Of a stretch of DNA of 64,000 nucleotides, positions 7,538-62,802 are shown one piece after another. The position numbers and the translations under genes were made by a program. The first letter of the stretch is position 1; each line of letters opens with the position of its first letter. The DNA is taken from contig JAFUNM010000046.1 of NCBI GenBank assembly GCA_017482195.1, positions 1,931-65,930 of the forward strand. Reading direction: 5' to 3'. The notes under the pieces were generated by a model. That model saw nothing but the letters and a program-made list of their open reading frames with translations, searched no databases and had not been told where the DNA came from. The stretch comes from Clostridia bacterium. GTDB taxonomy: Bacteria; Bacillota; Clostridia; Oscillospirales; QAKW01.

Positions 7538-7747
7538 TTATTTTAATTGATCTGTGATTCCTAATATATAATCGGCAGATACATTCCAATGCTCGCATAG
7601 CAATTTGATCCTGCTGGCCGGAATCTCATTTTTTGCGCGTTCATAATCACTGTAAGCCTGCTGGGTCGTACCCAATAACTCGGCGATCATCGCCTGGCTC
7701 TCCCCCTTTTTCTTCCGGATCTCTCGTATTCTTTCATGATATAGCAT
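7538..7747 (-). CDS. small XRE-family HTH regulator (cassette 1)
   Basis: This is a 69-aa single HTH_XRE domain, MLYHERIREIRKKKGESQAMIAELLGTTQQAYSDYERAKNEIP...NVSADYILG. The ATG at 7747 follows GGAGGTG; the ORF-track start at 7795 is unsupported. Confidence 0.85.
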   Translation of the reverse strand: MLYHERIREIRKKKGESQAMIAELLGTTQQAYSDYERAKNEIPASRIKLLCEHWNVSADYILGITDQLK

Positions 7748-7788
7748 GGTATCACCTCCGCCTTTCATTTTAAATAAAATTTTATGTA

Positions 7789-7841
7789 TTGACAAACACG
7801 AAATATCATGTATAATATAATTACACGAATTATCATGTATA
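7789..7841 (+). promoter_or_regulatory. sigma-A type promoter with two 19-nt direct repeats (candidate operators)
   Basis: TTGACA is at 7789-7794 and TATAAT at 7811-7816. ACACGAAATATCATGTATA (7796-7814) is repeated as ACACGAATTATCATGTATA (7823-7841). Confidence 0.6.
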
Positions 7842-7855
7842 GCGAGGAGGTTATT

Positions 7856-8125
7856 ATGATGAACACACTTAAAGAATTATGGCATGGCAATCTTCATCCA
7901 CAGGAGCAACGAAGAGAACAACGCCCGGAAATTCAAGAACTTCTTCAGCTGAGCGAGATCAACCGAAATCGCCTTTATGAAACACTCTCCGATCAGCAAA
8001 AAGAAACATTCGAAAAATATGTTGATTGCCTTGATGAACTTTCCTGCCTCACTGAATCAGAACTCTTTATCCAAGCCTTTCGATTGGGAGGAAAGATCAT
8101 GTTGGAAACATTGAGCAGCAATTAG
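7856..8125 (+). CDS. small alpha-helical partner protein of XRE cassette 1 (unknown function)
   Basis: The 89-aa ORF starts at ATG 7856 after GAGGAGG. Its sequence is MMNTLKELWHGNLHPQE...ELFIQAFRLGGKIMLETL. It is divergent from the XRE gene. It resembles a small Clostridia-restricted family (possibly DUF6809; from memory, unverified). Confidence 0.55.
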   Translation: MMNTLKELWHGNLHPQEQRREQRPEIQELLQLSEINRNRLYETLSDQQKETFEKYVDCLDELSCLTESELFIQAFRLGGKIMLETLSSN

Positions 8126-8133
8126 TTTCACTC

Positions 8134-8167
8134 AAAAAAGATCCCCGATTACTCGGGGATCTTTTTC
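8134..8167. terminator. bidirectional intrinsic terminator
   Basis: Hairpin AAGATCCCCG-attact-CGGGGATCTT is flanked by an A-run and a T-run. It lies between convergent genes. Confidence 0.75.
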
Positions 8168-8193
8168 CTTATTCTTGGCGGTCTGCGCCGTTT

Positions 8194-11100
8194 TCAGCGG
8201 TTTTCAACCTTTCTCTTTTTGAAGAACAGGAAGAGTAATCCGCCGGTGATCACAAACAATGCGATCAAAAGCCCCGGATTGCTGCCACCGCCGGTATAGG
8301 GGCTGGTGGGCTCATCCTCATTGGGAGTCGGCGTCGGAACAGGCTCGGGAACCGGCTCGGGAGTGGGTTCGGGAGTGGGTTCTGGAACGATAGGCGGTGT
8401 ATAGAGGTTATTGAACACCACCGTTGCATCTTTGCTGCCGTCCACAACGACTGCCGCATTCAGCACCCCGTTTGCATCGGTCACCTTAACCACCAGATCA
8501 TAGGTCTTAGTGTCATAGGTGATGGTGCTATCGGTGCCTGCCATTTCTTTCACGCGGTAGTGATACTCGCCCACCTGATCATAGACACGCTCGGAGAACA
8601 CAAAGGTATTGCCCACATTGGTCTTGCTCTCCAGCAAGGTCTCGGTTCCATTCTGATCCACAGAATAGAGTTCAAAGGTGAACTCCCCGTCCACCAGATC
8701 TCTTCCGGTCAGGTTCTTGGTACCGGAGATCGCCAGTTTAGCATCGTCGGGATCATAAGCATTCTTGAAGATGATCTTCGTCTCGGCGCTTCCGTTGACG
8801 GTGACCGAGGGAGTCAACACACCGTTTATATCGGTTACCACGATCTGCACCTGATAAACAGTCTCATCGTAGGTCACCTTTGCTGCGTCGCCCTTCTTCT
8901 CGATGATCTTATACTGATAGTTTTCTGCCTTATCAAAGATCATCTCACTGAAGGTAAAGGCGCTGCCCTTATTGGTAACAGCCTCTTTCAGGGTCTCGGC
9001 TCCGTCTTTCACAGAATAGAGCTCGAAGGTAAATTCCCCGTCTTTCAGGGCTCTGCCGGTCAGCAGTTTATTGCCGGAGAGGGTCACCTTGGCATCATCG
9101 GGATCATAGACATTCTTGAAGCCGACGGTGGTGGTTTCTTCCCCGTTGATGGTGGTTTCGGGGATCAGCACACCGTTTACATCAGTCACTACGATCTCCA
9201 CCTCATAAACGGTCTCATCATAAGCGACCTTTACTGCATCCCCCTTCTTCTCCACGATCTTATACCGATAGGTATCTGCCTGATCAAAGATCAGCTCGCT
9301 GAAAGTGAAAGTGCCGCTTGCATTGGTCTTGAATTCTTTCAGCGTTTCTGCTCCGTCTTTAGCTACGGAATAAAGTTCAAAGGTGAACTCGCCATCGGTC
9401 ATATCTCTTCCGGTGAGGGTCTTGGTACCCGAAAGGGTAACCTTAGCATCGGCGGGATCATAGATATTGGTGACCGTAATAGAGCCGTTCTTCACACCGT
9501 CTGCGGTAACCTCATAAACCAGAACATCTCTGCCGGTATGGTCGGTCACTTCTGTTACTTCCACCGTAACCACATAGGAATTGGTATCATAGGTGATGCC
9601 GTCCTTATGCTTATTGGTCGCGCTCACGCCCTCAGGCAGTTTTTCTTTGATCACAAAGTGGTAGGTGCCTGCCTTGCTGAAGGTCATATAGGTGGTCATG
9701 ACCTGCAGTCCGCTCAGTTCATCGGTGAGCAGCATCTCTTCAAACTTGAAGCTGCCATCGGCGGCGTTGGTTGCCTCCAGAAGAGGCTCACCCACCGCAA
9801 CGATCTCACCGTTTCTCTCCATTGCCTGATACAGTTCAAAGGTGAACTGCCCGTCGGTCAAAGTTTTATTATAAGACTTGGTTCCGCCCAGTTCCACTGC
9901 GACGGGTTCTTCCATCAGTTCATTGATAAAGTTGATCTCATCGCTGCCAACGGTAGAAGAGGCTCCATGCTCATCCACCTTGGTGACCTTCATATCGGTC
10001 TTCAGGCCGCCCTGCAGATCATCGGATACATCCACCTCAATGAAATAGACACTCTCATCATAGTTCATCAGCGGATCGGCATCAGCAGGGATCTGCTCGC
10101 GGATCACAAAGCGGTATGCACCGATGGCGCTGAAGTTCAGCTGTGCGATAGCGGAGGCGTTAAAGGCAAAGGTGCCGGTTCCGTCTTCCCTGGCTTCGGT
10201 GATCTTCGCCCCCTGTTCTACCGTCTTAGTATCAAGATCATACTCGGCGGCATACAGTTCATAAACGAATGCCTTTTCGCCCGTATACTTGGCGATAGCA
10301 TCGCCGATCAGCGTTTTGGTGCCGGTGAGATCCACCGAGGTGGGACTCACATGATAAGAGTTTTCAAAGGCGGGAGTGCCCTCGGGATACTGCACCTGAG
10401 CGTGGAGAGTACCGTCACCCTGATCGGTGACAACAACGGTCACATCATACTCATTCAGATCATAGGTCACACCGAATCTGGTGGGATTGGATGCATCCAC
10501 ACCGTCGGGTCGATGCTCTCTAACCGTATAATAATAAGTACCTACGGTATAGAATGTCAGCGGCTCAAAGGCAAATGCCGCATTGGCATCATCGGTAGGA
10601 ACACCGTTGCCCACGTTCCCGATCACCTGATCGTTTTGCAGCAACTCGAAATAGAAGGCATTTGCCTGCAGCTTACGGATGCCGCCGGTTAGATGCTTTG
10701 TGCCGCCGATCACCACATCGGTCACCGGATCCACCGTATAAAGGTTATCGAATACGATATCGGTCACATAGCCGTCCAGGGCGCTGACCCAGGAGGCGGT
10801 GAGGGTGCCGGTGGTATTATCGCCGGTCACGGTTACGGTCACGGTATATTTTCTGGTATCATAGGTGGTACCCAGATGCTTATTGTTTGCATCAATACCG
10901 GCGGGGAGTTTCTCCCGCACCACATACTGATAGGTTCCCGCCTGTTCAAAGGTCAGCGCGGTAAACTCCACTGCCGCGGTGGGATCATCGGCATTGGCGG
11001 GAGCTTTATTGCCCACCGTCTCTTTCCAGACCTCACCCTGAGGAGTGATCTCATAGAGTTCAAATTCAAAGAGATCCGCGGTCAGCTTCTTGCCGGTCAG

Positions 11101-11949
11101 GTTCTTGGTGGCGGTAATGGCGGGAGCCACTGCCGCTTCGGGGGTAAAGGTATTCTCAAAGGTGATCACACCGTCGGGGATCTCCGCTACCGTTACGGTA
11201 CCGGCGGAGCCGGTATAGGTATTGATGAAAGTAGCGGTTCCGTTTTCCAGCTTATAGACGGTAACGGTAATGGTATAGTTCCCGCTCTCGGTACCTACAT
11301 CTACTTTAATGCCATAGGCTTCCTCGCTGTAATCAATGCGGGAATCGGCAGACGCGGGAACCTTCTCCTCCAGTACATAATACTTGGTGCCCACCTGGGT
11401 TGCATCATTGAAGAGCAACGCAATATCGGTAGTACCGGCAGTGCTGGTGGCGGGAGCGTTTCCTGCCTCCTCACCCTTGGTCCATTGCCCATCGGCATGA
11501 TAGAGGGTAAATTCGAAGCCGGAGGGCGGAATCAAAGCGCCCTTATTTCCGGTCACGGTCTTCTTGATATTGATGACCGCTTCGGCTGCACCGTTTACCT
11601 CATAGCGGTTCTCAAAAGAGGCGTTTACCGTCCACTCGGTAACATCGCCGACGGTGGCGGTTGCCACCGTGGCATCGGTGCCCGCCGCCACATTGCTGAT
11701 ATAAAGCTGACCCTGCTCATTGTCGCTGACGATGACATCAAAGTAAGCGGGGGTGGCATCGTAGACATAACCGTTTGCCACATAGGAGTCATTCACGATC
11801 TCCACCACGCGGTAGGAGTAGGCGCCCGCCTCGGTAAAGATCTCATTCTGCAACGCGCTTACATCAAAAGCGAAGGTCTTCTGCCCCAACTCATTGGTAT
11901 AGGTAACGGCAGCGTTAGCAACGCCAAGATCCACATAGGTATTGGTGGT
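8194..11949 (-). CDS. giant surface adhesin, C-terminal fragment: pilin-isopeptide (Spy0128/FctA-type) domain repeats, Pro-rich stalk and sortase sorting signal
   Basis: About 11 repeats follow the pattern K.L.G....F.F.LY....Y.Y.(I/V).E....YD...Y.V.V.V.D....F.N.Y. The C-terminus is PEPTPEPTPEPVPEPVPTPTP, then SPYTG, a hydrophobic helix and KKRKVENR. The frame is open upstream to 11949. Confidence 0.85.
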   Translation of the reverse strand, partial: TTNTYVDLGVANAAVTYTNELGQKTFAFDVSALQNEIFTEAGAYSYRVVEIVNDSYVANGYVYDATPAYFDVIVSDNEQGQLYISNVAAGTDATVATATVGDVTEWTVNASFENRYEVNGAAEAVINIKKTVTGNKGALIPPSGFEFTLYHADGQWTKGEEAGNAPATSTAGTTDIALLFNDATQVGTKYYVLEEKVPASADSRIDYSEEAYGIKVDVGTESGNYTITVTVYKLENGTATFINTYTGSAGTVTVAEIPDGVITFENTFTPEAAVAPAITATKNLTGKKLTADLFEFELYEITPQGEVWKETVGNKAPANADDPTAAVEFTALTFEQAGTYQYVVREKLPAGIDANNKHLGTTYDTRKYTVTVTVTGDNTTGTLTASWVSALDGYVTDIVFDNLYTVDPVTDVVIGGTKHLTGGIRKLQANAFYFELLQNDQVIGNVGNGVPTDDANAAFAFEPLTFYTVGTYYYTVREHRPDGVDASNPTRFGVTYDLNEYDVTVVVTDQGDGTLHAQVQYPEGTPAFENSYHVSPTSVDLTGTKTLIGDAIAKYTGEKAFVYELYAAEYDLDTKTVEQGAKITEAREDGTGTFAFNASAIAQLNFSAIGAYRFVIREQIPADADPLMNYDESVYFIEVDVSDDLQGGLKTDMKVTKVDEHGASSTVGSDEINFINELMEEPVAVELGGTKSYNKTLTDGQFTFELYQAMERNGEIVAVGEPLLEATNAADGSFKFEEMLLTDELSGLQVMTTYMTFSKAGTYHFVIKEKLPEGVSATNKHKDGITYDTNSYVVTVEVTEVTDHTGRDVLVYEVTADGVKNGSITVTNIYDPADAKVTLSGTKTLTGRDMTDGEFTFELYSVAKDGAETLKEFKTNASGTFTFSELIFDQADTYRYKIVEKKGDAVKVAYDETVYEVEIVVTDVNGVLIPETTINGEETTTVGFKNVYDPDDAKVTLSGNKLLTGRALKDGEFTFELYSVKDGAETLKEAVTNKGSAFTFSEMIFDKAENYQYKIIEKKGDAAKVTYDETVYQVQIVVTDINGVLTPSVTVNGSAETKIIFKNAYDPDDAKLAISGTKNLTGRDLVDGEFTFELYSVDQNGTETLLESKTNVGNTFVFSERVYDQVGEYHYRVKEMAGTDSTITYDTKTYDLVVKVTDANGVLNAAVVVDGSKDATVVFNNLYTPPIVPEPTPEPTPEPVPEPVPTPTPNEDEPTSPYTGGGSNPGLLIALFVITGGLLFLFFKKRKVENR
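8401..9459 (-). repeat. three tandem 117-118-aa coding repeats (8401-8754, 8755-9105, 9106-9459)
   Basis: Each unit starts DP(A/D)DAK(V/L).(L/I)SG.K.LTGR and ends F(K/N)N.Y. These units are much more alike than the upstream domain copies. Confidence 0.9.
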
Positions 11950-14900
11950 TTATCCAGCTTTTGCAGTTTAAATTCGAAAGTACGGGCCGTGCTGTCTGCG
12001 GCGGTGCCCACCAAATTCTTGATGCCTTGGATCTTCACATTGGTAGGAGGTACGGTATCCTTGGCGTCATAGGTATTGGTAAAGCGAATGTAACGGGTCT
12101 CCCCGATTGCCGCGGTGGCATAGCCGGTTTGGGCGTTGGCGGTAAAGCCTACGGCGGTATAGTCCGCTTCGGTTGCCGTTACCGTCACGCCTGCAGGCAA
12201 ATCGGCAATATGCAGCACCTGCCCATGGGTCAGGGTAACGGTATTATTCTGACCTGCCAGCAGGGTATAGATCTGCCCGTCGGAACGGGTGGCGGTGATA
12301 TTCTCGGTGCCGGTATGGGTCACGGTGAATTCAAATTCCTTGGTCAGATGGCTGTTATGATCACTGACCACCGTCTTGCTGATCACGATATCTCCGTCTT
12401 GCGGCTTGGTGTTCACAAAATCGGCGGAATTGATAACGCCTGAGGTCACCGCAACGGTAGCAGTGATGGCGGCGGTATCGCCGTTGACGCTGTACACTTC
12501 ATAATCGGCGTCGGAAGGAATGACCTCGGCAACCGTAAAAGTCTTGCCGATCATGGCATTGCCGGTCACATAAGCAATCTCGCCGCTCTTGAGGGTGAGG
12601 GTCGCTTTGCCGGCGGTAAAGGCAAGGGCACCGACGCTGCGCTGACCTGCCGCATCCTCTTTGATGAGGACCAGGGTCTCTGCAAAAGCGGCATCGCTTG
12701 CAGTGATCTCAAAGGTATAGTCCAGAGTGCGATCCTCAATGGTAGAATCGGCGGTCTTGGTGATCTTGATGCCCTCATAGGGATCTACCAGCAATTTACC
12801 GTTGTTGCCAAGATAGGAGTCCACATGGTAGACGCCCTTGGTAACATTGACACCGGCGCTGGGATCATGAACGAAGGGACGGTCGGAATCGGGCAGGGTA
12901 TTGGTCCTGTTTTCCGTTTTCTCCATCACATAGTCGCCGTAGTAATGATAGATAGTACCGCGGGTAACGATCCAACTGCCGTCTGCCAGCCGCTCCATAT
13001 CGCCCGCATGCTCCATCACATGCTCGGAGACCTGCTCATAATGCCAGGTTGCAGTTACATTGCTGCCGCTTCCGCTATAAACTAAGAAACGGTGATAGAG
13101 GGGGTTATTCTCATCATAGACCGGGGCGGTGGCACCGGTATAAAGAGTGCCTGCCGTATCGGTATAGATCGGGGTGTCTGCGGTGTAATAATACCGTTCA
13201 TTCTCCAAGGAAGGCTCAAAGAAAGAGATGGTATTCTTATCGGTGCTGTACTGATAATCATAGTACGCATTCTCAGCTTGGTTATACTGCCACTGGTTGG
13301 TATAGAAAACATACTTTCCGTTTTCAGTCTGCAACTCATCCGGAGCCGTATTCTCAATATCCAACAGATCGATGGCATCGTCCAGACCCACCTCATAGAT
13401 CAGGCGGCTGGGGGCAGTGGCACCGGTGATGGTCAAGGTAGCGGGATCCATGGGATCCAGCTCTTTCAGATCAATATCATACTCCACCAGGGGGATCAGC
13501 GAAGCAGGCAGGCGCCCGATGACGCGGGTATCCCCCACCTTGCTGGCATCGATCTTGCCGGCGGCGGTCTCCTTCAGGGTGGTACGCACCTGAATGGTGG
13601 CGTACATCATATCCGTCTTACGGTGCGTGTCGTCATCGCCGATGGCATCATAATAGCCATAGGACTTAATGGCATAGACCGCGGTATCAGCCAATGCGGC
13701 GGGAACAGCGGCGGGGGAATCATCTTTACCGTCCCAGAAACCGATATACTTTCCGTTTCCGTCGGCATACCAGCCGATATAGTTGTTATACTCGCCGGTC
13801 TCGGGGTTGTAGTACAACTGACCGTTGGCATAGGCAAGTCCCAGCAGCTCACGGGCTTCCTGAACCGAATCGATCCCCAGACGCGCCTGCACCGACCACA
13901 CCAGGTTATTACCGACATCGGTAGGCTTCTCAACCGTTCCCATGCCGCCTTCATAGATCATTTTGGCAAGGGTACGGCCGGTATAGAGCTTTTCGCCCAG
14001 CTGGATGCCCTTCACATCCTTGACTTCCATATTTTCGCCGATATAGTCTTCAAACTCCAGGAAACCGTCTTCATTGATGCTGTTGCCGGTCTCCACCTGA
14101 GTGGGATAATAGAGCGACTGGATCACGATCTGCTGCACAATATCCTCAAAGGCTTGGATCAGTCCGGCGGCATTGGAGGCGGGGAAATATTCGGTCACAT
14201 AGTTCTCTGCCCAACCGTCGCTCAATACCGCATCGGTATAGGTGATGGTCTTGGTCTCAGGGTCGACCCATTCCGGCTCGTCATCATCGGGTCCGCCGCC
14301 CGGTCCGCCATAGTTGGGACCGCCGCCCTGCGTCCAATATCCATCGCGAATGGTAACGCTCATGGTCTTATCGGTTTCATCGGCAAGGGCAATATATTCG
14401 TTCCACATGGCATCAGTGGCAGTATTGCTTGAGGGATCCAATACGCTCCGGGCGGCATCGCTGTCATCTACCTTCAGACCCAGAGTATAGAAAAGCGGAT
14501 CGGTTCCGTATTTTTCTTCCATCTTATCGCGGACCCAGGATGCGGTCAGCTGGGTCATAAAGGCGATACCGGGGGTGGCATAAGTAGAAGAACCGTTACC
14601 GCTGTTTGCGGTATCCACCTCGGTATAGCTGGTGGTGGCGGTGGTGGGAGCACCGTCGGAAAGCAGGACCATTACAGGAACCCGCTCCACACCTGCCTGT
14701 ATACCCTCGGCAAGGGTGGTCTCGGCAACGGCCTCAAACTGCTCCCAGGCCTGATACAGACCGTTCTGAATATAGGTGCCGCCCTCAGCGCGCTTGCTGT
14801 TACTCTCGCTGAAGGTGCTTTCAATGTCATCGGCAACCGTGCCGGTCACGCCGGAATTCACCTTCACGCCGGTACGCCAATCACTGCCGCTTCTCCAGGA

Positions 14901-15524
14901 GGAGACCAGATAGGTATTGTTCACACCGGGGGTATAGCGACCCAACGGCAGGATCACCTCGGCGGTGCCGACGGTGGAAGCAGTCCCGGTGCTGTTGCTG
15001 CCGCTATAGGCGATGACACCCACCCGGTTATTGGCATTGAGATTTAAAAGCTTATCCAGAGCCGCATTGGCCGCCTGGACCGTTGCACTTACTGCCTGGT
15101 TGGTCTCCATGCTCGCAGAAAGATCCAGGACCAGAACCGTATCGGTGGGCAGGGTGGAATACCCCTCCACGCTCTTGCTGGAGGCGATGGCGGAGAGCGC
15201 CACTAAAAAGCTTTCCTCCTCCAGCTCTGCCAGATCGGCGAGCGCCTGATCGTTTTCATTCTCATCGGTGGCAGCAGTTAGATCGGCGACCGACGAAAAG
15301 ACCGATTTATCCGTCCAGACCATACCGGCGCTGGTGGTATCAATGGTCTCAGCCTCGGATCCGAAAAACAGTTTCCAATCGTTGACTGTTGCGGGATCGG
15401 TGACTGAGGTGTAATTGAGAGGCACTTCCTCAGACAACGCGGCAAAAGGAACGCTCATCACCAAAATGCACGCTGCCAAAAAGGCTGCCAGGATTCTCTT
15501 CGTTACATTCACTTTCTTTTTCAT
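11859..15524 (-). CDS. giant surface adhesin, N-terminal fragment: signal peptide, VWA domain and pilin-type domains
   Basis: The start MKKKVNVTKRILAAFLAACILVMSVPFAALSEE is a signal peptide (ATG 15524). VWA MIDAS DLSASM ... VLLSDGAPT is present. The last domain (RTFEFKLQKLDK) breaks off into an out-of-frame tail. Confidence 0.85.
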   Translation of the reverse strand: MKKKVNVTKRILAAFLAACILVMSVPFAALSEEVPLNYTSVTDPATVNDWKLFFGSEAETIDTTSAGMVWTDKSVFSSVADLTAATDENENDQALADLAELEEESFLVALSAIASSKSVEGYSTLPTDTVLVLDLSASMETNQAVSATVQAANAALDKLLNLNANNRVGVIAYSGSNSTGTASTVGTAEVILPLGRYTPGVNNTYLVSSWRSGSDWRTGVKVNSGVTGTVADDIESTFSESNSKRAEGGTYIQNGLYQAWEQFEAVAETTLAEGIQAGVERVPVMVLLSDGAPTTATTSYTEVDTANSGNGSSTYATPGIAFMTQLTASWVRDKMEEKYGTDPLFYTLGLKVDDSDAARSVLDPSSNTATDAMWNEYIALADETDKTMSVTIRDGYWTQGGGPNYGGPGGGPDDDEPEWVDPETKTITYTDAVLSDGWAENYVTEYFPASNAAGLIQAFEDIVQQIVIQSLYYPTQVETGNSINEDGFLEFEDYIGENMEVKDVKGIQLGEKLYTGRTLAKMIYEGGMGTVEKPTDVGNNLVWSVQARLGIDSVQEARELLGLAYANGQLYYNPETGEYNNYIGWYADGNGKYIGFWDGKDDSPAAVPAALADTAVYAIKSYGYYDAIGDDDTHRKTDMMYATIQVRTTLKETAAGKIDASKVGDTRVIGRLPASLIPLVEYDIDLKELDPMDPATLTITGATAPSRLIYEVGLDDAIDLLDIENTAPDELQTENGKYVFYTNQWQYNQAENAYYDYQYSTDKNTISFFEPSLENERYYYTADTPIYTDTAGTLYTGATAPVYDENNPLYHRFLVYSGSGSNVTATWHYEQVSEHVMEHAGDMERLADGSWIVTRGTIYHYYGDYVMEKTENRTNTLPDSDRPFVHDPSAGVNVTKGVYHVDSYLGNNGKLLVDPYEGIKITKTADSTIEDRTLDYTFEITASDAAFAETLVLIKEDAAGQRSVGALAFTAGKATLTLKSGEIAYVTGNAMIGKTFTVAEVIPSDADYEVYSVNGDTAAITATVAVTSGVINSADFVNTKPQDGDIVISKTVVSDHNSHLTKEFEFTVTHTGTENITATRSDGQIYTLLAGQNNTVTLTHGQVLHIADLPAGVTVTATEADYTAVGFTANAQTGYATAAIGETRYIRFTNTYDAKDTVPPTNVKIQGIKNLVGTAADSTARTFEFKLQKLDKPPIPMWILALLTLPLPIPMSWGRRPSLLM

Positions 15525-15560
15525 ATTCTTTTCCCTTTCATGGACCGTTAACAAAGGTTC

Positions 15561-15606
15561 TTTGGTACTATACAACAGTATAGTACCAAAAGAGGGATAT
15601 CCCTCT
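15561..15606. promoter_or_regulatory. two adjacent perfect palindromes between tetR and the adhesin start
   Basis: TTTGGTACTATAC-aaca-GTATAGTACCAAA spans 15561-15590. AGAGGGATATCCCTCT spans 15591-15606. On the minus strand the second is followed by TTTT, so it may be the tetR terminator. Confidence 0.5.
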
Positions 15607-15629: not shown

Positions 15630-16355
15630 TCATTCGGTCTGTTTTTCATTGGCGTTCTTTGATCGTTTTTCAATCAGATCATCCAGCGCCTGCTCGTTGA
15701 CTTCTTCCACATATTCTTTAAAATCTTCCAAGATCCTTCGCCCGATGGAGCGGTAGTCCATCGCCAGGATCTTATCCACCTTCATGCTGCGGATTTCTTC
15801 GGGCACATTATAGATCATCATAATACTGTTGAGCGCGCCCGCGACCCGAACATCCAGGGGAGCAACATCCGATGTGGTCATCAGGGTGGCATATTCAATG
15901 CCGGAGACCAACACCTCCGCTTCCGCAAAATTTTGATTGGTCCAGCCGGCGCAGTATTCACCGAACACCGCTTTCGCCTTTTCCTCATCGGAACGGCGGA
16001 TGATATCCAGCGTCATCGGATGGGAGTAGGCTGAAATATAAAAATCTTTTGCGATCTCATTTTCCTCGCAGATGGCTGCGATCGTGGGCAGTTCCAAACA
16101 AAGTGCCAGCAAGGAACTGTTGCCCTCATCGGTCAACTGCTCCATCATCTTCCATTGGAACTCACCAAGCATCTCCACCAGCACCGCCAGCATATGCTCC
16201 TTGGTCGGAAAATAAAAGGTAAGATTCCCGGTACTGATATCCAACTCCTCACAAATGGACTTGGCGGTTGTATTGGAAAATCCATTCTCCAGGAACTTTT
16301 TCATCGCCACCTGGATGATCTCGATTTTCGTAGTATTTACCCGTCTTCGTGACAT
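15630..16355 (-). CDS. TetR/AcrR family transcriptional regulator
   Basis: The N-terminal TetR HTH is TKIEIIQVAMKKFLENGFSNTTAKSICEELDISTGNLTFYFPTKEHML. ATG 16355 follows GGAGGG. Confidence 0.85.
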   Translation of the reverse strand: MSRRRVNTTKIEIIQVAMKKFLENGFSNTTAKSICEELDISTGNLTFYFPTKEHMLAVLVEMLGEFQWKMMEQLTDEGNSSLLALCLELPTIAAICEENEIAKDFYISAYSHPMTLDIIRRSDEEKAKAVFGEYCAGWTNQNFAEAEVLVSGIEYATLMTTSDVAPLDVRVAGALNSIMMIYNVPEEIRSMKVDKILAMDYRSIGRRILEDFKEYVEEVNEQALDDLIEKRSKNANEKQTE

Positions 16356-16394
16356 GAATTCCCTCCGATTTTCAATCTTTTTAGGAAACGTCCT

Positions 16395-16440
16395 AATTAG
16401 CATCTATGCTAATTTTAGCACACATCCTAAAATATTGCAA
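16395..16440 (-). promoter_or_regulatory. tetR promoter with overlapping 9-2-9 palindrome (candidate autoregulatory operator)
   Basis: On the minus strand, TTGCAA (16435-16440), a 17-nt spacer and TAAAAT (16412-16417) form the promoter. Palindrome AATTAGCAT-ct-ATGCTAATT is at 16395-16414. Confidence 0.55.
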
Positions 16441-16464
16441 GTGTTTTTTCAAAAAAGGATAAAA

Positions 16465-16490
16465 AAGTTCCCGGATCCTTCCGGGAACTT
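16465..16490. terminator. bidirectional intrinsic terminator downstream of spo0A
   Basis: Hairpin AAGTTCCCGGA-tcct-TCCGGGAACTT has A-rich and T-rich flanks. Confidence 0.75.
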
Positions 16491-16509
16491 TCGTTTTTCT
16501 ACATTCCGC

Positions 16510-17289: not shown

Positions 17290-17600
17290 TCATTTTATTC
17301 CTCCTCATCGAGGGGATCTGCGGTACCGGTCAGAAGCAATACCGATGCCAATTTCGCCCCTTTAGTGCACGTATTCCTCAACCATAATTCGAGTTGAATC
17401 AACGCGCTTTACCAAATGATACCAAATTAATTACGAAGAAGTTGTCGGTTTCTGTCTGAGAACAAAATTTTTTCGGGGCACACAATTTTGTTTTCTTCGG
17501 GAGCGGAACAACCGATCGGGGCAGACCTTCTATGTCGAGCACCATTTGTGCTCATTATACACGATCCGTGTACAACTGTCAAGACGGATTTGAAAAATCC

Positions 17601-17629
17601 TTGACGAAAGTGCACTATGTGTGTATAAT
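17601..17629 (+). promoter_or_regulatory. sigma-A type promoter of the XRE/S24 repressor gene
   Basis: TTGACG is at 17601-17606, followed by a 17-nt spacer and TATAAT at 17624-17629. Palindrome TACACG-atc-CGTGTA lies upstream at 17548-17562. Confidence 0.6.
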
Positions 17630-17653
17630 CTAAGTAAGAATGGAGGTGTTCTT

Positions 17654-18319: not shown

Positions 18320-18330
18320 TCTCTTGTTAA

Positions 18331-24787: not shown

Positions 24788-24997
24788 TTATTTCAGCGGT
24801 CTGGGATGATCGATCAAACCAAGGATATAGTCTGCCGATACATTATATAATTTACAAAGCGCAATAAGCTTTTCACCGGTGATATCCGATTTTTGGTTTT
24901 CAAGATTGCTGTATTGGGCTTGCGTGATATTCAATAAAGCAGCCAGTTCTTTTTGCTGCCGATCCTGATCTTCTCTTAAATCTCTTATTCTGTACAT
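24788..24997 (-). CDS. small XRE-family HTH regulator (cassette 2)
   Basis: The 69-aa protein is MYRIRDLREDQDRQQKELAALLNITQAQYSNLENQKSDI...NVSADYILG. ATG 24997 follows GAGGTGA. Confidence 0.85.
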   Translation of the reverse strand: MYRIRDLREDQDRQQKELAALLNITQAQYSNLENQKSDITGEKLIALCKLYNVSADYILGLIDHPRPLK

Positions 24998-25023
24998 TCT
25001 TCTCACCTCAAAAATATTTTACT

Positions 25024-25070
25024 ATATAAATTTAATTTATCTTGACAAATATAAATTTAATTTATATAAT
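25024..25070 (+). promoter_or_regulatory. sigma-A type promoter bracketed by a 17-nt direct repeat
   Basis: ATATAAATTTAATTTAT occurs at 25024-25040 and again at 25049-25065. TTGACA is at 25042-25047, followed by a 17-nt spacer and TATAAT at 25065-25070. Confidence 0.6.
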
Positions 25071-25099: not shown

Positions 25100-25186
25100 A
25101 TGAAAGCACAAAAAATCAGTGTCAGCCTATCATTTGATCCGGATATTTTACAGCAGGCAAAAGAACACGCCGCGAAAGAAGCATAA
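25100..25186 (+). pseudogene. truncated ribbon-helix-helix partner ORF (28 codons) of cassette 2
   Basis: MKAQKISVSLSFDPDILQQAKEHAAKEA-stop matches the first 27 residues of the 47-aa paralog at 25523-25666, then ends. A GGAG RBS is present. Confidence 0.5.
25124..25181 (+). repeat. 58-nt direct repeat, copy A
   Basis: AGCCTATCATTTGATCCGGATATTTTaCAGCAGGCAAAAGAACACGCCGCgAAAGAAG differs at 2 positions from copy B at 25547-25604. Confidence 0.9.
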
Positions 25187-25199: not shown

Positions 25200-25412
25200 T
25201 TATTTTAATCGTTTTGGTTCATTCACTAAACCAAGAATATAATCTGCAGACACTTGAAAATGCTTTGCCAAAAGAACGATTTTTTGACCGTCCAGATCTG
25301 CTTTTCCCAACTCGATTTTACTGTAGTGCTGTTGGGTCGTTTTCATGATCTCTGCCATGTCCTTTTGCCGAAGGTCGTGATCCTCACGAATATCTTTGAT
25401 CCGATAATTCAT
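25200..25412 (-). CDS. small XRE-family HTH regulator (cassette 3)
   Basis: The 70-aa protein is MNYRIKDIREDHDLRQKDMAEIMKTTQQHYSKIELGKADL...QVSADYILG. ATG 25412 follows AAAGGAGGAA. Confidence 0.85.
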   Translation of the reverse strand: MNYRIKDIREDHDLRQKDMAEIMKTTQQHYSKIELGKADLDGQKIVLLAKHFQVSADYILGLVNEPKRLK

Positions 25413-25443
25413 ATATATTCCTCCTTTATGTAATGAGTATATC

Positions 25444-25490
25444 ATACATCTAAAAAGTGTATTGACAAATACATCTATCAGGTGTATCAT
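25444..25490 (+). promoter_or_regulatory. sigma-A type promoter flanked by a 9-nt direct repeat
   Basis: ATACATCTA occurs at 25444-25452 and at 25469-25477. TTGACA is at 25462-25467, followed by a 17-nt spacer and TATCAT at 25485-25490. Confidence 0.5.
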
Positions 25491-25522: not shown

Positions 25523-25666
25523 ATGAAAGAGCGAAAGGTCAGCATCAGCCTATCATTTGATCCGGATATTTTGCAGCAGGCAAAAGAACACGCCGCAAAA
25601 GAAGAACGAACCCTTTCCCGCTATGTCAATTGGGTGTTGCGGCAGCATTTTCGCAAAAAAGAATAG
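25523..25666 (+). CDS. small ribbon-helix-helix-like partner protein of cassette 3
   Basis: The 47-aa protein is MKERKVSISLSFDPDILQQAKEHAAKEERTLSRYVNWVLRQHFRKKE, with a beta-strand then two helices. An AAGGAGG RBS is present. The ORF is too short for the ORF track. Confidence 0.65.
   Translation: MKERKVSISLSFDPDILQQAKEHAAKEERTLSRYVNWVLRQHFRKKE
25547..25604 (+). repeat. 58-nt direct repeat, copy B
   Basis: See copy A at 25124-25181. The two copies flank the cassette-3 XRE gene and promoter. Confidence 0.9.
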
Positions 25667-53428: not shown

Positions 53429-53460
53429 AAAAAGGTCGTACATTGTACGACCTTTTTATT
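53429..53460 (+). terminator. intrinsic terminator
   Basis: Hairpin AGGTCGTACA-t-TGTACGACCT is followed by TTTTT. Confidence 0.8.
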
Positions 53461-53494
53461 TGCTCCATAAAGACCGCATCATTGCAATTCCATC

Positions 53495-53725
53495 CTACAA
53501 ACCCTTTTGATAAACAATCTCCAACTCCCTGCCGGAAAGGGCATTCAACGCCTCTTCATAGTCACAAAAGCATTTCCGTTTATCCTTTGAAATTGCTTTT
53601 TCCAAAGCATTGAATTGCGCCTTATATACCTGATGTAATTCCGCGTACTCTTTGTCTGCAAGAACGATCGGATATAAGCACTCCATCATTTCTTCCGATA
53701 ACAGTTGCATCATATGATCGAACAT
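53495..53725 (-). CDS. small alpha-helical partner protein of XRE cassette 4 (unknown function)
   Basis: The 76-aa ORF has a GGGAGGAG RBS. Its C-terminal part, CFCDYEEALNALSGRELEIVYQKGL, parallels FEKYVDCLDELSCLTESELFIQAFRLG of the cassette-1 partner. Confidence 0.5.
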   Translation of the reverse strand: MFDHMMQLLSEEMMECLYPIVLADKEYAELHQVYKAQFNALEKAISKDKRKCFCDYEEALNALSGRELEIVYQKGL

Positions 53726-53765
53726 TTTTCTCCTCCCTTAAAAAAGAATCATTGACCAAATCATA

Positions 53766-53813
53766 AACCAATTTGTTTTAAACGCAAATATAACAATTTG
53801 TTTTAATTATAAT
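53766..53813 (+). promoter_or_regulatory. direct repeats and -10 box in the cassette-4 intergenic region
   Basis: CAATTTGTTTTAA occurs at 53769-53781 and again at 53794-53806. TATAAT is at 53808-53813. Confidence 0.45.
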
Positions 53814-53850
53814 ATTTATTACTCAATGTTCTAAAAGGAGCTATAAAAAT

Positions 53851-54072
53851 ATGTACAAACGAATACGAGATTTAAGAGAAGATCTGGATCTTTCGCAAAC
53901 CGTTCTTGCTAAATACTTACAGTGCTCGCAGGTTTGCTATTCCCATTATGAAATCGGGAAGCGGGACATTCCGACACAGATCCTTATAAAACTTGCCGCA
54001 TTTCATCATACCAGTGTGGACTATCTGTTAGGTATTACCGACCAAAAGGATCCTTATCCAAAAGCAAAATAA
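53851..54072 (+). CDS. small XRE-family HTH regulator (cassette 4)
   Basis: The 73-aa protein is MYKRIRDLREDLDLSQTVLAKYLQCSQVCYSHYEIGKRDIP...SVDYLLGI. An AAAGGAG RBS is present. Confidence 0.85.
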   Translation: MYKRIRDLREDLDLSQTVLAKYLQCSQVCYSHYEIGKRDIPTQILIKLAAFHHTSVDYLLGITDQKDPYPKAK

Positions 54073-54124
54073 AAAACAGAAAACCGCCCAGCGGATACTG
54101 AGCGGTTTTTGATTTTTAAGATTC

Positions 54125-60052: not shown

Positions 60053-60877
60053 TTATTCTTCTTCCACCTCAGGGATGGCATCCATATACTCATTGAGCAT
60101 GGAAAGATCCGGCATTTCCATGGGTGCTGCTTCTTTAGGTTTTCGAGACAGGCAGTTGAGGGTATAGCCTGCCAGCACAGAAAGGATCAGGCCTTCAGCG
60201 GCAGTAAAGACCGCCGGAACGTTAAGGCCGCCGAACAAAGGAACTACGAAGGCCATCGGAAGAAGTACCAGCACAATGCCGCCGGCGGCACCCAGACGCT
60301 CCTTGGAGCAGGCGGCACCCACCAGGGTTTTGCTCAAAGAGAAGGTAAAGAACAGGGCAGCGCACCAGCCCAGCATCCCTAAAATATAGGCGCTGATATG
60401 GATATACTTATAGGTGGTCCAGAAATAATAAACGATCTGCCCTGCAAGCTGCAGCATGGGCAGCAGCGTCCAGAGGGCGGCTCGCTTGGGAGAACGGCCC
60501 ATCCAGAGCCAGCCGAAGGCACCGGTCAAAAAGAGCACAGCGGTTACCGCATCTAAAGAAGAGGCGGCATCCATCAGGCGGAAAATACCGTCCACCCCGC
60601 TGGCAACGCCCATCAAACCGAAAAGGATGCGAGGCATCCAATCCCGACTGTAGAGCACCGAGAGCTCTGTTTGCTCCTTTTGGCCTGCATAGCAGATGAG
60701 GCTAAGCAGAAGACCAACGATCAACACAGCGATCCGCACCGTACTCCATACAGAGGCAGCAGATACCGCAAGGTAATAGCCCTCCTGATCTAAAGTTATA
60801 AAATATTCTACAATTCGGATGACCAAAGCAAGGATCCCCAGCCCGACCGTACCGAACAGACCGATTTTATTCTTCAT
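60053..60877 (-). CDS. polytopic membrane protein, unknown function
   Basis: This 274-aa protein is strongly hydrophobic throughout and has an acidic C-terminal tail. Confidence 0.5.
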   Translation of the reverse strand: MKNKIGLFGTVGLGILALVIRIVEYFITLDQEGYYLAVSAASVWSTVRIAVLIVGLLLSLICYAGQKEQTELSVLYSRDWMPRILFGLMGVASGVDGIFRLMDAASSLDAVTAVLFLTGAFGWLWMGRSPKRAALWTLLPMLQLAGQIVYYFWTTYKYIHISAYILGMLGWCAALFFTFSLSKTLVGAACSKERLGAAGGIVLVLLPMAFVVPLFGGLNVPAVFTAAEGLILSVLAGYTLNCLSRKPKEAAPMEMPDLSMLNEYMDAIPEVEEE

Positions 60878-61028
60878 AAAGGCTCGTTCCTTTCAATATA
60901 GTTACACAGAATATATTATATATTTTTATATAAAAAAAGTAAATAGATTTCCGCCGAAAACTTTTCCTTGCGGAATAACAGAAAATGTGGTAAGATTTAG
61001 GTTGATAAATTTTGAGCGAGGATACTTT

Positions 61029-62135
61029 ATGATCATTATTGAAGATTATAAGCAGAAATTCAATGAATTTAAGAAGGACTTGGATACCCTGGAGAAGGCG
61101 CTGAAGATCGCAGACCTGCGGGTCAAGATCCAAGAGGATGAGGCCCTTACTGCCGCTCCCGGCTTTTGGGACGACATTGCCAATTCTCAAAAGGTATTGC
61201 AGGTTATTAAGAACAATAAAAAAACCGTAGAAAACTTTGAAAAGATGGTCTCTGCCCATGAGGATCTGGGTGCTCTTCTGGAAATGGCCGAAATGGACCC
61301 CGAAGAAATGGAAGAGGATGTTATCAAAGAATTCACTGACTACGAGAAAAAGCTGGAGGCCGCCAACCTCCAAACCCTATTAAGCGGTGAATTCGATCAG
61401 AACAACGCCATCCTCACCTTCCACGCCGGTGCCGGCGGTACCGAGGCCCAGGATTGGGTGGAGATGCTTTACAGAATGTATCTGCGGTTTGCCCAACGGC
61501 ATGATTATAAGGTGACGGTACTGGATTACCTGGACGGCGACGAGGCCGGCATCAAGAGTGCCTCTATTTTGGTAGAAGGTCAGTATGCTTACGGCTATCT
61601 CAAAAGCGAGATGGGGGTTCACCGCTTGGTGCGGGTCTCCCCCTTCGATGCCTCCGGCCGTCGGCAGACCTCCTTTGCATCAGTGGAGGTCATGCCCGAG
61701 ATCGACGACAGCGTTGAAGTCGAAATCCGTCCCGAGGATATCAAAATGGAAGTGTTCCGCTCCAGCGGCGCAGGCGGCCAGAAGGTCAATAAAACCTCTT
61801 CGGCCGTGCGGCTCATCCACCTGCCTACCGGCATCGTAGTCTCCTGCCAGAATGAACGCAGCCAGTTCCAGAACCGGGATATGTGTATGAAGATGCTCAA
61901 ATCCAAGCTGATCGAGATCAAAGAGCGTGAGAATCTGGAGCGTATTGAGGATATCAAGGGCGACCAGATGAGCAACGGCTGGGGCAGCCAGATCCGTTCC
62001 TATGTATTTATGCCTTATACCTTGGCCAAAGACCATCGCACCAATTTTGAGATGGGTAATATCAATGCGGTAATGGATGGAGACATCGATGGTTTCGTCA
62101 ATGCCTATCTCATTCACCTCTCCCATCAAGAATAA
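61029..62135 (+). CDS. prfB: peptide chain release factor 2 (no programmed frameshift)
   Basis: The SPF motif (VRVSPFD) and GGQ motif (SSGAGGQKVNK) are present. ATG 61029 follows GAGGAT. The N-terminal segment is in frame, so no internal UGA frameshift site is needed. Confidence 0.92.
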   Translation: MIIIEDYKQKFNEFKKDLDTLEKALKIADLRVKIQEDEALTAAPGFWDDIANSQKVLQVIKNNKKTVENFEKMVSAHEDLGALLEMAEMDPEEMEEDVIKEFTDYEKKLEAANLQTLLSGEFDQNNAILTFHAGAGGTEAQDWVEMLYRMYLRFAQRHDYKVTVLDYLDGDEAGIKSASILVEGQYAYGYLKSEMGVHRLVRVSPFDASGRRQTSFASVEVMPEIDDSVEVEIRPEDIKMEVFRSSGAGGQKVNKTSSAVRLIHLPTGIVVSCQNERSQFQNRDMCMKMLKSKLIEIKERENLERIEDIKGDQMSNGWGSQIRSYVFMPYTLAKDHRTNFEMGNINAVMDGDIDGFVNAYLIHLSHQE

Positions 62136-62148
62136 GACTGCCTAAAGG

Positions 62149-62185
62149 AAAAGAACCCGAACCAAAAGGTTCGGGTTCTTATTTT
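62149..62185. terminator. bidirectional intrinsic terminator
   Basis: Hairpin AAGAACCCGAACC-aaaa-GGTTCGGGTTCTT is followed by ATTTT. Confidence 0.85.
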
Positions 62186-62239
62186 ATCCTCATATTAGAC
62201 AGTCTGAACAAAGTATCAAAAACAACACCGCTCAAAGTC

Positions 62240-62461
62240 TCACTTCTTGATCGGTTCCGGGTTTTCGCTCAGTCCCAATACATAATCTGCCGAAACATTA
62301 TAGTGGCGGCAAATCGCTATAATTCTGCGAACCGGCATTTCATTGACACCCTTTTCGTATTTCATGTAAGCCTGCTGAGTTGTTCCCAAAAACTCCGCTA
62401 ATTGCCGTTGGGTTTCATGATTTGCCTGACGGAGCGCCCGTATTCTTTCATAGTATTCCAT
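62240..62461 (-). CDS. small XRE-family HTH regulator (cassette 5)
   Basis: The 73-aa protein is MEYYERIRALRQANHETQRQLAEFLGTTQQAYMKYEKGVNEMP...NVSADYVLG. An AGGAGGA RBS is present. Confidence 0.85.
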   Translation of the reverse strand: MEYYERIRALRQANHETQRQLAEFLGTTQQAYMKYEKGVNEMPVRRIIAICRHYNVSADYVLGLSENPEPIKK

Positions 62462-62482
62462 ATCATTTATCCTCCTATTTTA

Positions 62483-62556
62483 GTTTAAATCAAAAATGAT
62501 GTATCGACAAACGCCAAAAGTGATGTTAAACTAATAACATCAAATTTGATTTAAAC
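62483..62556 (+). promoter_or_regulatory. promoter enclosed by 20-nt inverted repeats (cassette 5)
   Basis: GTTTAAATCAAAAATGATGT (62483-62502) pairs with ACATCAAATTTGATTTAAAC (62537-62556), matching at 18 of 20 positions. TCGACA (62504-09), a 17-nt spacer and TAAACT (62527-32) lie between the arms. Confidence 0.55.
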
Positions 62557-62568
62557 AAGGAGCATACC

Positions 62569-62802
62569 ATGAAAAAGCAAATCAGTATCTGCGTAGACCC
62601 CGAAGTTTTAGAAAGATTAAAGCAATTAGCCAAACAGGAAGAACGATCTCTTTCCCGCTATATCAATCGGATTTTGAAGCAACACACCGAAAAACACCAA
62701 ACCAAAGCCAACTCCATCTTACCCGCAAACCAAAGACCATCCAAAACAAATGAAGATCACCGTTTTCGGCGGTCTTATTCCAATTCGAAAGCGCCGGTAT
62801 AG
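62569..62802 (+). CDS. small ribbon-helix-helix-like partner protein of cassette 5 (with long tail)
   Basis: MKKQISICVDPEVLERLKQLAKQEERSLSRYINRILKQH parallels the 47-aa paralog at 25523. An AAGGAG RBS is present. The tail runs 28 nt into the convergent ABC gene. Confidence 0.6.
   Translation: MKKQISICVDPEVLERLKQLAKQEERSLSRYINRILKQHTEKHQTKANSILPANQRPSKTNEDHRFRRSYSNSKAPV

Follow-up and report, generated by a model that had tools for sequence, protein, structure and literature searches.

Five divergent cassettes of a single-domain XRE repressor and a small partner among core genes of a Clostridia bacterium, proposed as autonomous repressor–operator switches

A stretch of 64,000 nt from an uncultured gut Clostridia bacterium (Oscillospirales, QAKW01; assembly GCA_017482195.1, contig JAFUNM010000046.1, a 140-kb metagenome scaffold, positions 1,931 to 65,930), here called the window, carries five small cassettes, in each of which the gene of a single-domain xenobiotic response element (XRE)-type helix-turn-helix (HTH) repressor faces a small, divergently transcribed partner gene across a control region with cassette-specific repeats (Table 1). 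The geometry of these control regions is that of a divergent genetic switch. With moderate confidence, we propose that the cassettes are acquired, autonomous repressor–operator switches of two types: in type B (cassettes 3 and 5, and cassette 2 with its truncated partner), the partner is a ribbon-helix-helix (RHH) protein and the switch would be CI/Cro-like, and in type A (cassettes 1 and 4), the partner is a DUF6809 or DUF6809-like protein that would act as an antagonist of the XRE or be its regulated cargo.

All five XREs match the Pfam family HTH_3 (PF01381) along almost the whole profile (positions 1–54 or 1–55 of 55) with 40.5–57.6 bits, the gathering score being 23 bits, and they terminate 5–13 residues past the HTH domain, with no additional Pfam domain. 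In the alignment, their identity is 40–52%, and 14 residues are invariant (Y3, R6, I7, R11, Q18, A22, Q29, Y32, E36, S57, D59, Y60, L62 and G63). The closest solved structures are those of ICEBs1 ImmR (PDB 7t8i, E 8e-13), PezA (E 9e-9), and P22 C2, and weak matches were found to the HTH regions of MqsA, PezA, CapH, and restriction–modification (R-M) control proteins, including the PADLOC model 'Control_protein'. A hidden Markov model (HMM) of the five XREs detected no sixth copy in the window; its sole other match is an unrelated LexA-like XRE-S24 protein of 220 aa (17621–18283). The five XRE open reading frames (ORFs) and their partners all lie where an initial annotation of this DNA had placed them, and its description of divergent micro-ORFs at about 100–125 bp with strong ribosome-binding sites (RBSs) agrees with the measured gaps (108, 102, 110, 125, and 107 bp for cassettes 1–5) and with a GGAGG-type RBS that is seen by sequence inspection before every partner start. 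Each cassette spans about 560–590 bp, with cassettes 2 and 3 forming a tandem of 879 bp. Terminators close off most cassette ends, and an Rfam scan found no RNA family within the cassettes.

The control regions follow a common plan. All five intergenic regions contain repeats with a start-to-start spacing of 24–27 bp; the repeat unit measures 17 nt in cassette 2, 13 nt in cassette 5, which has three copies, and 19 nt in the other three cassettes. The −35 hexamer of the XRE promoter overlaps that of the partner promoter in cassettes 1–3. In cassettes 2 and 3, the spacer of either promoter holds one repeat copy; in cassettes 1 and 4, one copy falls within the core of that of the partner, while the other covers the start site or leader; and in cassette 5, three half-palindromic sites surround the promoter. 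When the window was scanned, the repeat patterns of cassettes 1, 2, 3, and 5 were confined to their own intergenic regions (0.02–1.3 chance matches expected), and the degenerate pattern of cassette 4 recovered one of its two copies. The claim of cassette-specific repeats stands for all five regions, and for cassettes 1, 2, 3, and 5 the repeats are private within the window, whereas the claim of a near-consensus promoter in every region holds for cassettes 1–3 and was slightly overstated for cassettes 4 and 5 (10/12 and 9/12).

This arrangement makes a strong, if circumstantial, case for repression of the partner promoter by the XRE, which would bind to private operators, and such local repression of the partner is the most likely step of the mechanism, as judged from the sequence. 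Each cassette would be a horizontally acquired, autonomous transcription unit built around a single-domain Cro/C1-type XRE. The XRE, probably as a dimer, would occupy paired, cassette-specific operators of about 13–19 bp, several of which are partly palindromic (three sites in cassette 5), and with these operators positioned within or just downstream of the strong sigma-A partner promoter, XRE binding would hold the partner off. In cassettes 2 and 3, the XRE would also repress itself, because the second operator lies within the spacer of its own promoter.

Table 1. Features of the five cassettes. Coordinates refer to the window; fractions give the match of promoter hexamers to the consensus.
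Feature	Position	Strand	Description and evidence
XRE1	7538..7747	-	69-aa single-domain HTH_3 repressor; Pfam HTH_3 E 2.4e-12
Cassette 1 control region	7767..7841	.	promoter pair and operator-like 19-mers
Cassette 1 partner promoter	7789..7816	+	TTGACA 7789-7794, 16-nt spacer, TATAAT 7811-7816; 12/12
Cassette 1 back-to-back XRE promoter	7767..7795	-	TTGTCA 7795-7790, TAAAAT 7772-7767; 10/12
Cassette 1 operator-like 19-mers	7796-7814, 7823-7841		within spacer and near transcription start; 2 matches vs 0.02 expected
Partner 1	7856..8125	+	89-aa acidic all-helical DUF6809 (PF20648); intrinsic terminator 8135-8166 behind
34-nt imperfect inverted repeat	7398-7431 and 8163-8196 (7398..8196)	.	brackets cassette 1 and its two terminators; unique in window (2 matches; 0 expected)
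XRE2	24788..24997	-	69 aa; Pfam HTH_3, alignment
Cassette 2 control region	25021..25070	.	overlapping back-to-back promoters
Cassette 2 + strand promoter	25042..25070	+	TTGACA 25042, 17-nt spacer, TATAAT to 25070; 12/12
Cassette 2 - strand promoter	25021..25048	-	TTGTCA 25048 to TATAGT 25021; 10/12; -35 hexamers overlap
Cassette 2 palindromic 17-mers	25024-25040, 25049-25065		ATATAAATTTAATTTAT; one per promoter spacer
RHH'	25100..25186	+	28-aa fragment; ends 13 bp ahead of XRE3 stop
XRE3	25200..25412	-	70 aa; Pfam HTH_3, alignment
Cassette 3 control region	25441..25490	.	back-to-back promoters
Cassette 3 + strand promoter	25462..25490	+	TTGACA 25462, 17-nt spacer, TATCAT to 25490; 11/12
Cassette 3 - strand promoter	25441..25468	-	TTGTCA 25468 to TATGAT 25441; 10/12
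Cassette 3 19-mers	25444-25462, 25469-25487		ATACATCTAnnnnGTGTAT; one per spacer
RHH3	25523..25666	+	47-aa basic Arc-like ribbon-helix-helix; terminator 25665-25688 before dpaA
Partner 4	53456..53725	-	divergent DUF6809-like gene; window allele stops at TAG 53495-53497 (76 aa), frame runs to 53456 (89 aa)
Cassette 4 control region	53763..53835	.	19-mers and partner promoter
Cassette 4 19-mers	53763-53781, 53788-53806		core AACAATTTGTT
Cassette 4 partner-directed promoter	53806..53835		TTTAGA 53835, 18-nt spacer, TATAAT to 53806; 10/12
XRE4	53851..54072	+	73 aa; terminator at 54080-54109 afterwards; Pfam HTH_3, alignment
XRE5	62240..62461	-	73 aa; Pfam HTH_3, alignment
Cassette 5 control region	62483..62556	.	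three sites, inverted repeat, promoter
Cassette 5 13-nt sites	62490-62502, 62514-62526, inverted 62537-62549		TCAAAnnTGATGT
Cassette 5 20-nt inverted repeat	62483-62502 and 62537-62556
Cassette 5 promoter	62504..62532		TCGACA 62504, 17-nt spacer, TGnTAAACT to 62532; 9/12, TG extension
RHH5	62569..62802	+	77-aa Arc-like RHH, ~30-aa tail

The partner proteins

Partner 1 belongs to the Pfam family DUF6809 (81.7 bits with a cut-off of 27 bits, E 7e-23, positions 1–85 of 85). Its AlphaFold2 model (pLDDT 78.8) contains helices only (residues 2–9, 15–22, 24–43, and 46–88), and neither a Foldseek search of the PDB nor a search of viral predicted structures gave a match for the DUF6809 model; a significant sequence match in the PDB was also not obtained. 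In 51 family members, the net charge ranges from −1 to −12 and the mean pI is 4.7, unlike the RHH partners and the XREs of the window, which are basic or neutral. As the family is uniformly acidic and lacks a DNA-binding fold or a solved relative, it is unlikely that DUF6809 proteins serve as DNA-binding second repressors, and a role as anti-repressor or as regulated cargo is more likely. Of the two, an anti-repressor with a logic like that of CI/MOR or SinR/SinI would be the better guess, with cargo as a real alternative. A single-sequence query gave just 2 homologous proteins and an alignment query was needed to obtain 183 clusters at E ≤ 1e-3, every one of which is annotated as hypothetical. 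There is no PADLOC or PHROGs match for DUF6809, and a full-text literature search for DUF6809 and DUF6364 found nothing published. Pfam assigns no function to DUF6809, and its linkage to XRE genes and its placement in core operons are documented here.

Partner 4 has three homologues of 87–102 aa among 1.8 billion representative proteins. They extend past the protein encoded in the window and carry a conserved 'YQKGLxDGIxLMKEL' motif. The 76-aa window protein itself has no Pfam DUF6809 match, and two of the homologues, P0132 and P0134, align from end to end with the DUF6809 profile at 19.9 and 21.7 bits, which is under the cut-off. The comparison of the partner 4 family with DUF6809 by hhalign was also weak (E 0.014, probability 3%), and what the two have in common is length, acidity, and a C-terminal 'aromatic-x-x-G-x-x-x-G-x-x-L-M' motif. 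Past the TAG codon, the frame of partner 4 reads DGIAMMRSLWSK up to the next stop, and in another contig (L280, around 785) a CAG takes the place of the TAG, resulting in an 89-aa protein; the TAG allele is present in the window and in at least five further contigs. Judging from these sequences, partner 4 is probably related, though distantly, to DUF6809 and carries a nonsense mutation that is polymorphic. The initial annotation had sorted the partners into an RHH-like class and a helical class with a common ending. The RHH class was supported by profiles, as was the assignment of partner 1, now to DUF6809, whereas the common ending of the helical pair is an artefact of the premature TAG, and BLAST detected no similarity between partners 1 and 4.

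RHH5 exceeds the cut-offs of DUF6364 (PF19891; 30.1 bits vs 27.3) and RHH_1 (PF01402; 21.5 vs 20.5) and matches phrog_3180, an 'Arc-like repressor' (E 1.9e-8). RHH3 is 48% identical to RHH5 and reaches 23.1 bits with DUF6364, which is below threshold. Both are basic RHH proteins of the Arc/CopG type. No PADLOC match was found for the RHH partners. In the type B cassettes, the basic, Arc-like RHH protein would be a second DNA binder, and a circuit of mutual repression like that of CI/Cro or Arc/Mnt is plausible, whereas in the type A cassettes the acidic, helical DUF6809 protein would contact and antagonize the XRE, in a CI/MOR- or SinR/SinI-like manner, or would be tightly repressed cargo. The two-repressor switch of the CI/Cro type that had initially been proposed for all cassettes is therefore tenable at the domain level for the XRE/RHH cassettes 3 and 5 and not for cassettes 1 and 4, as DUF6809 is acidic and has no DNA-binding fold. 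With regard to RHH5, it can be added that the 28 nt at the end of its tail (62775–62802) reach into the 3' end of the ABC exporter gene, which is convergent with it; as no terminator is present, the two transcripts could be mutually antisense.

In the tandem of cassettes 2 and 3, a 60-bp segment of RHH' (25122–25181) is 97% identical to 25545–25604, whereas XRE2 and XRE3 are just 50% identical. This difference rules out a simple tandem duplication and argues for a recombination through the RHH 5' region. The RHH' fragment points to a recombination junction, at which XRE3 could, for example, have integrated together with its promoter and an RHH 5' part. The tandem arrangement is identical in all contigs that cover the stretch.

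Distribution and origin of the cassettes

A pattern scan of one genome per species yielded more than 544 XRE relatives that were confirmed, and the 80 best of these, which were examined, are nearly all from Oscillospirales and Lachnospiraceae. In about 60% of 78 relatives, a divergent partner gene with an RBS begins 50–230 bp away. This partner is a DUF6809 gene in about 13 loci and an RHH gene in two (L013 and L057), and other partners include many secreted or membrane proteins, such as S-layer/WG repeat, BspA-type leucine-rich repeat (LRR), Sel1, List-Bact repeat, and zinc-ribbon proteins, as well as a radical-SAM/SPASM enzyme and a SLOG protein. Since close XRE relatives pair with unrelated partners, the unit of XRE and operators appears to be portable, and the tiny partner, which is part of the cassette description in the initial annotation, is not a defining feature. 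The idea of an expanding family found no support either: four of the five window XREs have nearer relatives elsewhere (60–71% identity) than in the window (at most 55%), which argues against a recent local expansion, and the tandem is a recombination product. An XRE–RHH pair was also found between dnaB/dnaI-like genes and a parB-like gene. None of 80 genome loci that we checked is syntenic with the window, and in metagenome contigs anchored at lepA, the best relatives are 62–76% identical and share no conserved arrangement of genes around lepA. In two distant metagenome contigs, XRE relatives near lepA (L087, 1254–2536; L157, 1754–2702) face divergent lipoprotein genes and not small partners. 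Exact-protein look-up with PpiB retrieved the source contig only, and that with SecG gave no match, probably owing to a start that had been called differently; in the metagenome contigs that were recovered by exact-protein look-up, neither damage nor differences were seen in promoters, operators, RBSs, and most ORFs.

The pairing of XRE and DUF6809 is seen from both sides, as six of nine DUF6809 genes that were picked without reference to XREs have a divergent XRE neighbor. Most of 16 such pairs elsewhere share the order of TTGACA, a spacer of about 17 nt with operator 1, TATAAT, and operator 2 before the RBS, and the operator sequence is different in each pair. Among DUF6809 proteins chosen regardless of XREs, we also encountered pairs inside core operons of Lawsonibacter-like and ASF500-like Oscillospiraceae, where they lie between mutS and mutL, upstream of miaA-hfq (on the mutL side), or upstream of maf-mreC-mreD-PBP2-minD. 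Proteins of the maf-site pair fall into three clusters at 90% identity that stem from different assemblies, and two of the maf-site sequences appear by eye to be roughly 60% identical; a cultured carrier of the cassette at this site is strain ASF500 (CP097573). In these operon-embedded pairs, the XRE gene runs 4 nt into the start of maf or miaA, or its stop is followed by mutL after 8 nt, and the 3' end of the DUF6809 gene overlaps the convergent upstream gene. In the cassettes of contigs L163, L167, and L272, the DUF6809 promoter fits the consensus at 12/12 positions, and no terminator is directed towards the upstream host gene, a layout that implies convergent transcription with mutS, mutL, or the NADAR gene, as far as can be read from sequence; a search for a sigma-A promoter of the XRE in three operon-embedded cassettes gave just one weak, misplaced 9/12 match. 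The miaA site is occupied by the cassette in some contigs and by an unrelated insert of about 740 bp in others, with closely aligning flanks. This insert (L170, 2080–2822; L272, 4438–4533) contains repeated hydrophobic ORFs of 31 aa that maybe encode small membrane or toxin-like peptides.

The composition of the cassettes sets them apart from their surroundings. The GC content at third codon positions (GC3) is 0.37–0.50 in all nine cassette genes vs 0.54–0.66 in twelve flanking genes, and the overall GC content is 36–41% in the cassettes vs 51% in the window. The closest homologue of the window DUF6809 protein (P0002, 51% identity) is encoded among genes for a D5-type primase, a DNA methylase, and HTH_26 proteins. 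In contig L004 (10531–11420), a DUF6809 gene and the beginning of a serine recombinase gene share an ATGA overlap, and a divergent HTH_26-type regulator gene is located upstream. In 2.9 million viral contigs, DUF6809 had one match and the RHH partner none, and the lone match (L188) is in an array that resembles an integrative and conjugative element (ICE), with a putative DNA methylase and conjugative-element-type cargo, as judged by eye from the ORFs. Neither DUF6809 nor the RHH partner was found in 80 phage loci bearing XRE relatives, and these searches together rule out a phage origin of the partners. The cassettes are, from this sequence evidence, probably acquired islets of about 0.6 kb that are ICE-derived rather than phage-derived, and some lineages look like they have kept them for a long time.

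Terminal repeats common to the five cassettes were sought and none were found, and with no repeat shared between cassettes, a MITE-like (miniature inverted-repeat transposable element) common element was ruled out. A flanking inverted repeat is present at cassette 1 only; either a palindromic intergenic terminator that has been split or the ends or scar of an insertion may account for it. In the window, no integrase, phage, or toxin gene adjoins any cassette, and the flanks contain core genes, namely those for YloV, Spo0A, Fur, rubrerythrin, HtpG, PpiB, DpaA, the CCA-adding enzyme, a CYTH protein, SecG, LepA, PrfB, and an ABC exporter. This agrees with the initial annotation, which had reported no such adjacent genes and had named yloV, ppiB, dpaA, secG, and prfB; LepA and the ABC exporter are additions. 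Its statement that there is no mobile element to control is correct locally, whereas the GC3, the context of P0002, the recombinase and ICE-like neighbors, and the closeness to ImmR point to a mobile origin.

Some further observations concern the surroundings. Next to cassette 1, two giant surface proteins of about 1240 aa are encoded on the minus strand (8194–15575), one with streptococcal-pilin isopeptide repeats and the other with DUF7601 and a von Willebrand factor A (VWA) domain. The following region (15630–18283) contains spo0A (16510–17289) between a TetR-family gene and the LexA-like XRE-S24 repressor gene. A lysine riboswitch (18328–18498, plus strand; Rfam RF00168, 99 bits) precedes a Na+/H+ antiporter-family gene, and the mechanically called ORF 18335–20134 therefore starts too early. 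The prfB ORF (60819–62135, plus strand) includes an N-terminal extension of about 80 aa outside the prfB model, and gene callers give 368 aa; a programmed frameshift or another start may lie behind the difference.

Autonomous switches and alternative explanations

Several of our findings weigh against autonomous switches with a dedicated partner. The XRE-directed promoters are weak or unrecognized in cassettes 4 and 5, and the XREs, with only 69–73 aa, are devoid of the oligomerization domain that gives classical CI-type switches their cooperativity. XRE relatives of 60–70% identity often face unrelated partners, which argues that the partner is cargo and did not co-evolve, and DUF6809 genes also occur without an adjacent XRE in mobile-like gene arrays, so that the function of DUF6809 need not involve the XRE at all. 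Finally, the nonsense allele of partner 4 and the truncated RHH gene of cassette 2 indicate that some cassettes may be decaying. The last point leads to the alternative that the cassettes are relics of mobile elements, leftover ICE or prophage immunity or regulatory regions that regulate themselves and control nothing else. The low GC3 would be explained in this way, as would the setting of P0002 amid primase, methylase, and HTH_26 genes, the DUF6809 genes beside a serine recombinase and in an ICE-like array, the structural closeness of the XREs to ICEBs1 ImmR, and the inverted repeat at cassette 1, together with the two damaged partner genes. However, no further mobile-element gene or scar was detected near any of the five cassettes, the control elements and most ORFs show neither damage nor differences in the recovered metagenome contigs, the presence of the XRE–DUF6809 pair at the maf site in three clusters speaks for long-term retention, and the partners are nearly absent from the viral contigs. 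We regard relics as possible but doubtful, and the autonomous switch as the preferred explanation.

The embedding of pairs in core operons suggests two other possibilities. The XREs could be dedicated local regulators of housekeeping neighbors, such as dpaA-dpaB past RHH3, with the partners as co-regulators. This would suit the position of the XRE as first gene of core operons in Oscillospiraceae, directly adjoining maf, miaA, or mutL, and the co-directional order of RHH3 and dpaA, but each XRE of the window is convergent with its neighbor or separated from it by a terminator, a terminator also lies between RHH3 and dpaA, and no operator copy was found beyond the cassettes in the window; such a role is distinctly unlikely. 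A bolder and still unlikely idea, only a little less so, is that the operon-embedded pairs are toggles, in which the XRE is the first cistron of the core genes and DUF6809 would be fired head-on into the host gene. The toggle would flip by transcriptional interference or by DUF6809 antagonism and would couple mismatch repair, tRNA modification/Hfq, or cell-shape genes to a heritable two-state element, with transient mutator or morphological subpopulations as one possible outcome, and the five stand-alone cassettes of the window would be free copies of this portable device.

That the cassettes are toxin–antitoxin (TA)-like or belong to anti-phage defence or counter-defence, with the XRE as antitoxin or controller and DUF6809 as a toxic or DNA-mimicking effector (compare Aca-type HTH proteins), appears very unlikely to us. 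The weak XRE matches to MqsA, PezA, CapH, and R-M control proteins fit with such a function, as do the small size and acidity of DUF6809, its presence in ICE-like arrays, and its strong promoter under tight dual-operator control. On the other hand, searches of Pfam, PADLOC, and PHROGs connected none of the partners with a family of toxins, defence, or anti-defence proteins, the genes are divergent and not co-transcribed, and no R-M, CBASS, or other defence genes adjoin; moreover, an intact XRE4 coexists with a nonsense partner 4, which gives no sign of addiction. The possibility of spurious partner ORFs, which the initial annotation had named as a refutation of its proposal and which would leave the XRE genes as the only real ones, is hardly credible. 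The ORFs are indeed very short (47–89 aa), and partner 4 has few homologues, but the Pfam match and the 183 clusters of partner 1, the Arc-like/RHH families matched by the RHH partners, the C-terminal motif kept in the homologues of partner 4, and the RBS and consensus-like promoter of each partner effectively refute this notion.

Significance and relation to known systems

As far as is known, few transcription factors of gut Clostridia are as numerous, or as poorly understood, as the small XRE regulators. For DUF6809, the cassettes provide a first functional context, as its genes would be under tight XRE control and often lie in core operons, and the protein probably binds other proteins. If the cassettes are bistable, they would be natural minimal toggles that could generate phenotypic heterogeneity in mismatch-repair and cell-shape operons of abundant gut anaerobes, and they would offer orthogonal repressor–operator parts for the engineering of Clostridia. 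If they are merely decaying immunity regions, they exemplify how regulatory debris of mobile elements settles among housekeeping genes.

The SinR/SinI system serves as a first comparison. SinR has a C-terminal helix pair for multimerization, and its antagonist is homologous to that domain, whereas the XREs of the cassettes are single-domain proteins and DUF6809 is unrelated to XREs. Among phage switches, MOR is itself an HTH protein of about 70 aa that acts on the repressor CI, and the type A cassettes resemble CI/MOR in that an XRE-type gene faces a divergent gene for a small helical partner and that operators overlap promoters. They differ in that CI has about 180 aa with an oligomerization domain and the XREs have a single domain, that DUF6809 has no likeness in sequence or fold to solved or viral structures, and that the cassettes contain no lytic genes and stand alone on the chromosome. 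In TP901-1 and phi13, the CI-MOR switch is contained in a fragment of less than 1 kb, in which back-to-back promoters lie between an XRE-type repressor gene and its small partner (PMC7250872, PMC11149083).

The type B cassettes are comparable to CI-Cro of lambda and P22 and to Arc-Mnt of the P22 immI region, as genes for two small predicted repressors diverge from a common operator-like region, with the RHH protein being Arc-like and the XRE C2-like. Unlike these systems, there is no prophage and the pairing is of mixed fold (XRE and RHH), and for the DUF6809 cassettes the comparison is inapplicable. A control of lytic or lysogenic functions was not found: the flanking genes are yloV, pilin, ppiB, dpaA, CYTH, secG, prfB, and ABC exporter genes, and the partners are essentially absent from viral contigs. 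Repression across overlapping divergent promoters is also known from the conjugative plasmid pLS20, whose XRE-type repressor Rco controls a conjugation operon of about 40 genes by looping between distant operator clusters (PMC4207663). As in pLS20, the XRE-type gene of the cassettes diverges from the strong promoter that it would repress, and the two promoters overlap, but the Rco anti-repressor Rap is a large tetratricopeptide repeat (TPR) protein that is encoded elsewhere.

The protease ImmA is the partner of ImmR, and the toxin PezT that of PezA, in either case from the same operon; the cassettes have no such partner. From type II TA systems they also differ in that their genes are divergent and no toxin family was found with Pfam, PADLOC, or PHROGs. 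The C proteins of R-M systems are likewise XREs of about 70–80 aa with paired palindromic boxes that overlap a promoter, but they precede their targets in the same orientation, and no R-M genes flank the cassettes. The description of an uncharacterized module in the initial annotation was upheld: literature searches on DUF6809, DUF6364, and divergent XRE/RHH modules gave no description, and the XRE–DUF6809 linkage, its operon-embedded form, and the dual-operator plan are not described in the literature searched. The cassettes resemble divergent-promoter repressor switches yet are distinct from CI/Cro as the control of a temperate element, from CI/MOR, from Rco of pLS20, from SinR/SinI, from C proteins, and from TA systems, and they define a recurrent unit of about 0.6 kb that consists of a mini-XRE, a private operator pair, a consensus promoter, and a divergent partner.

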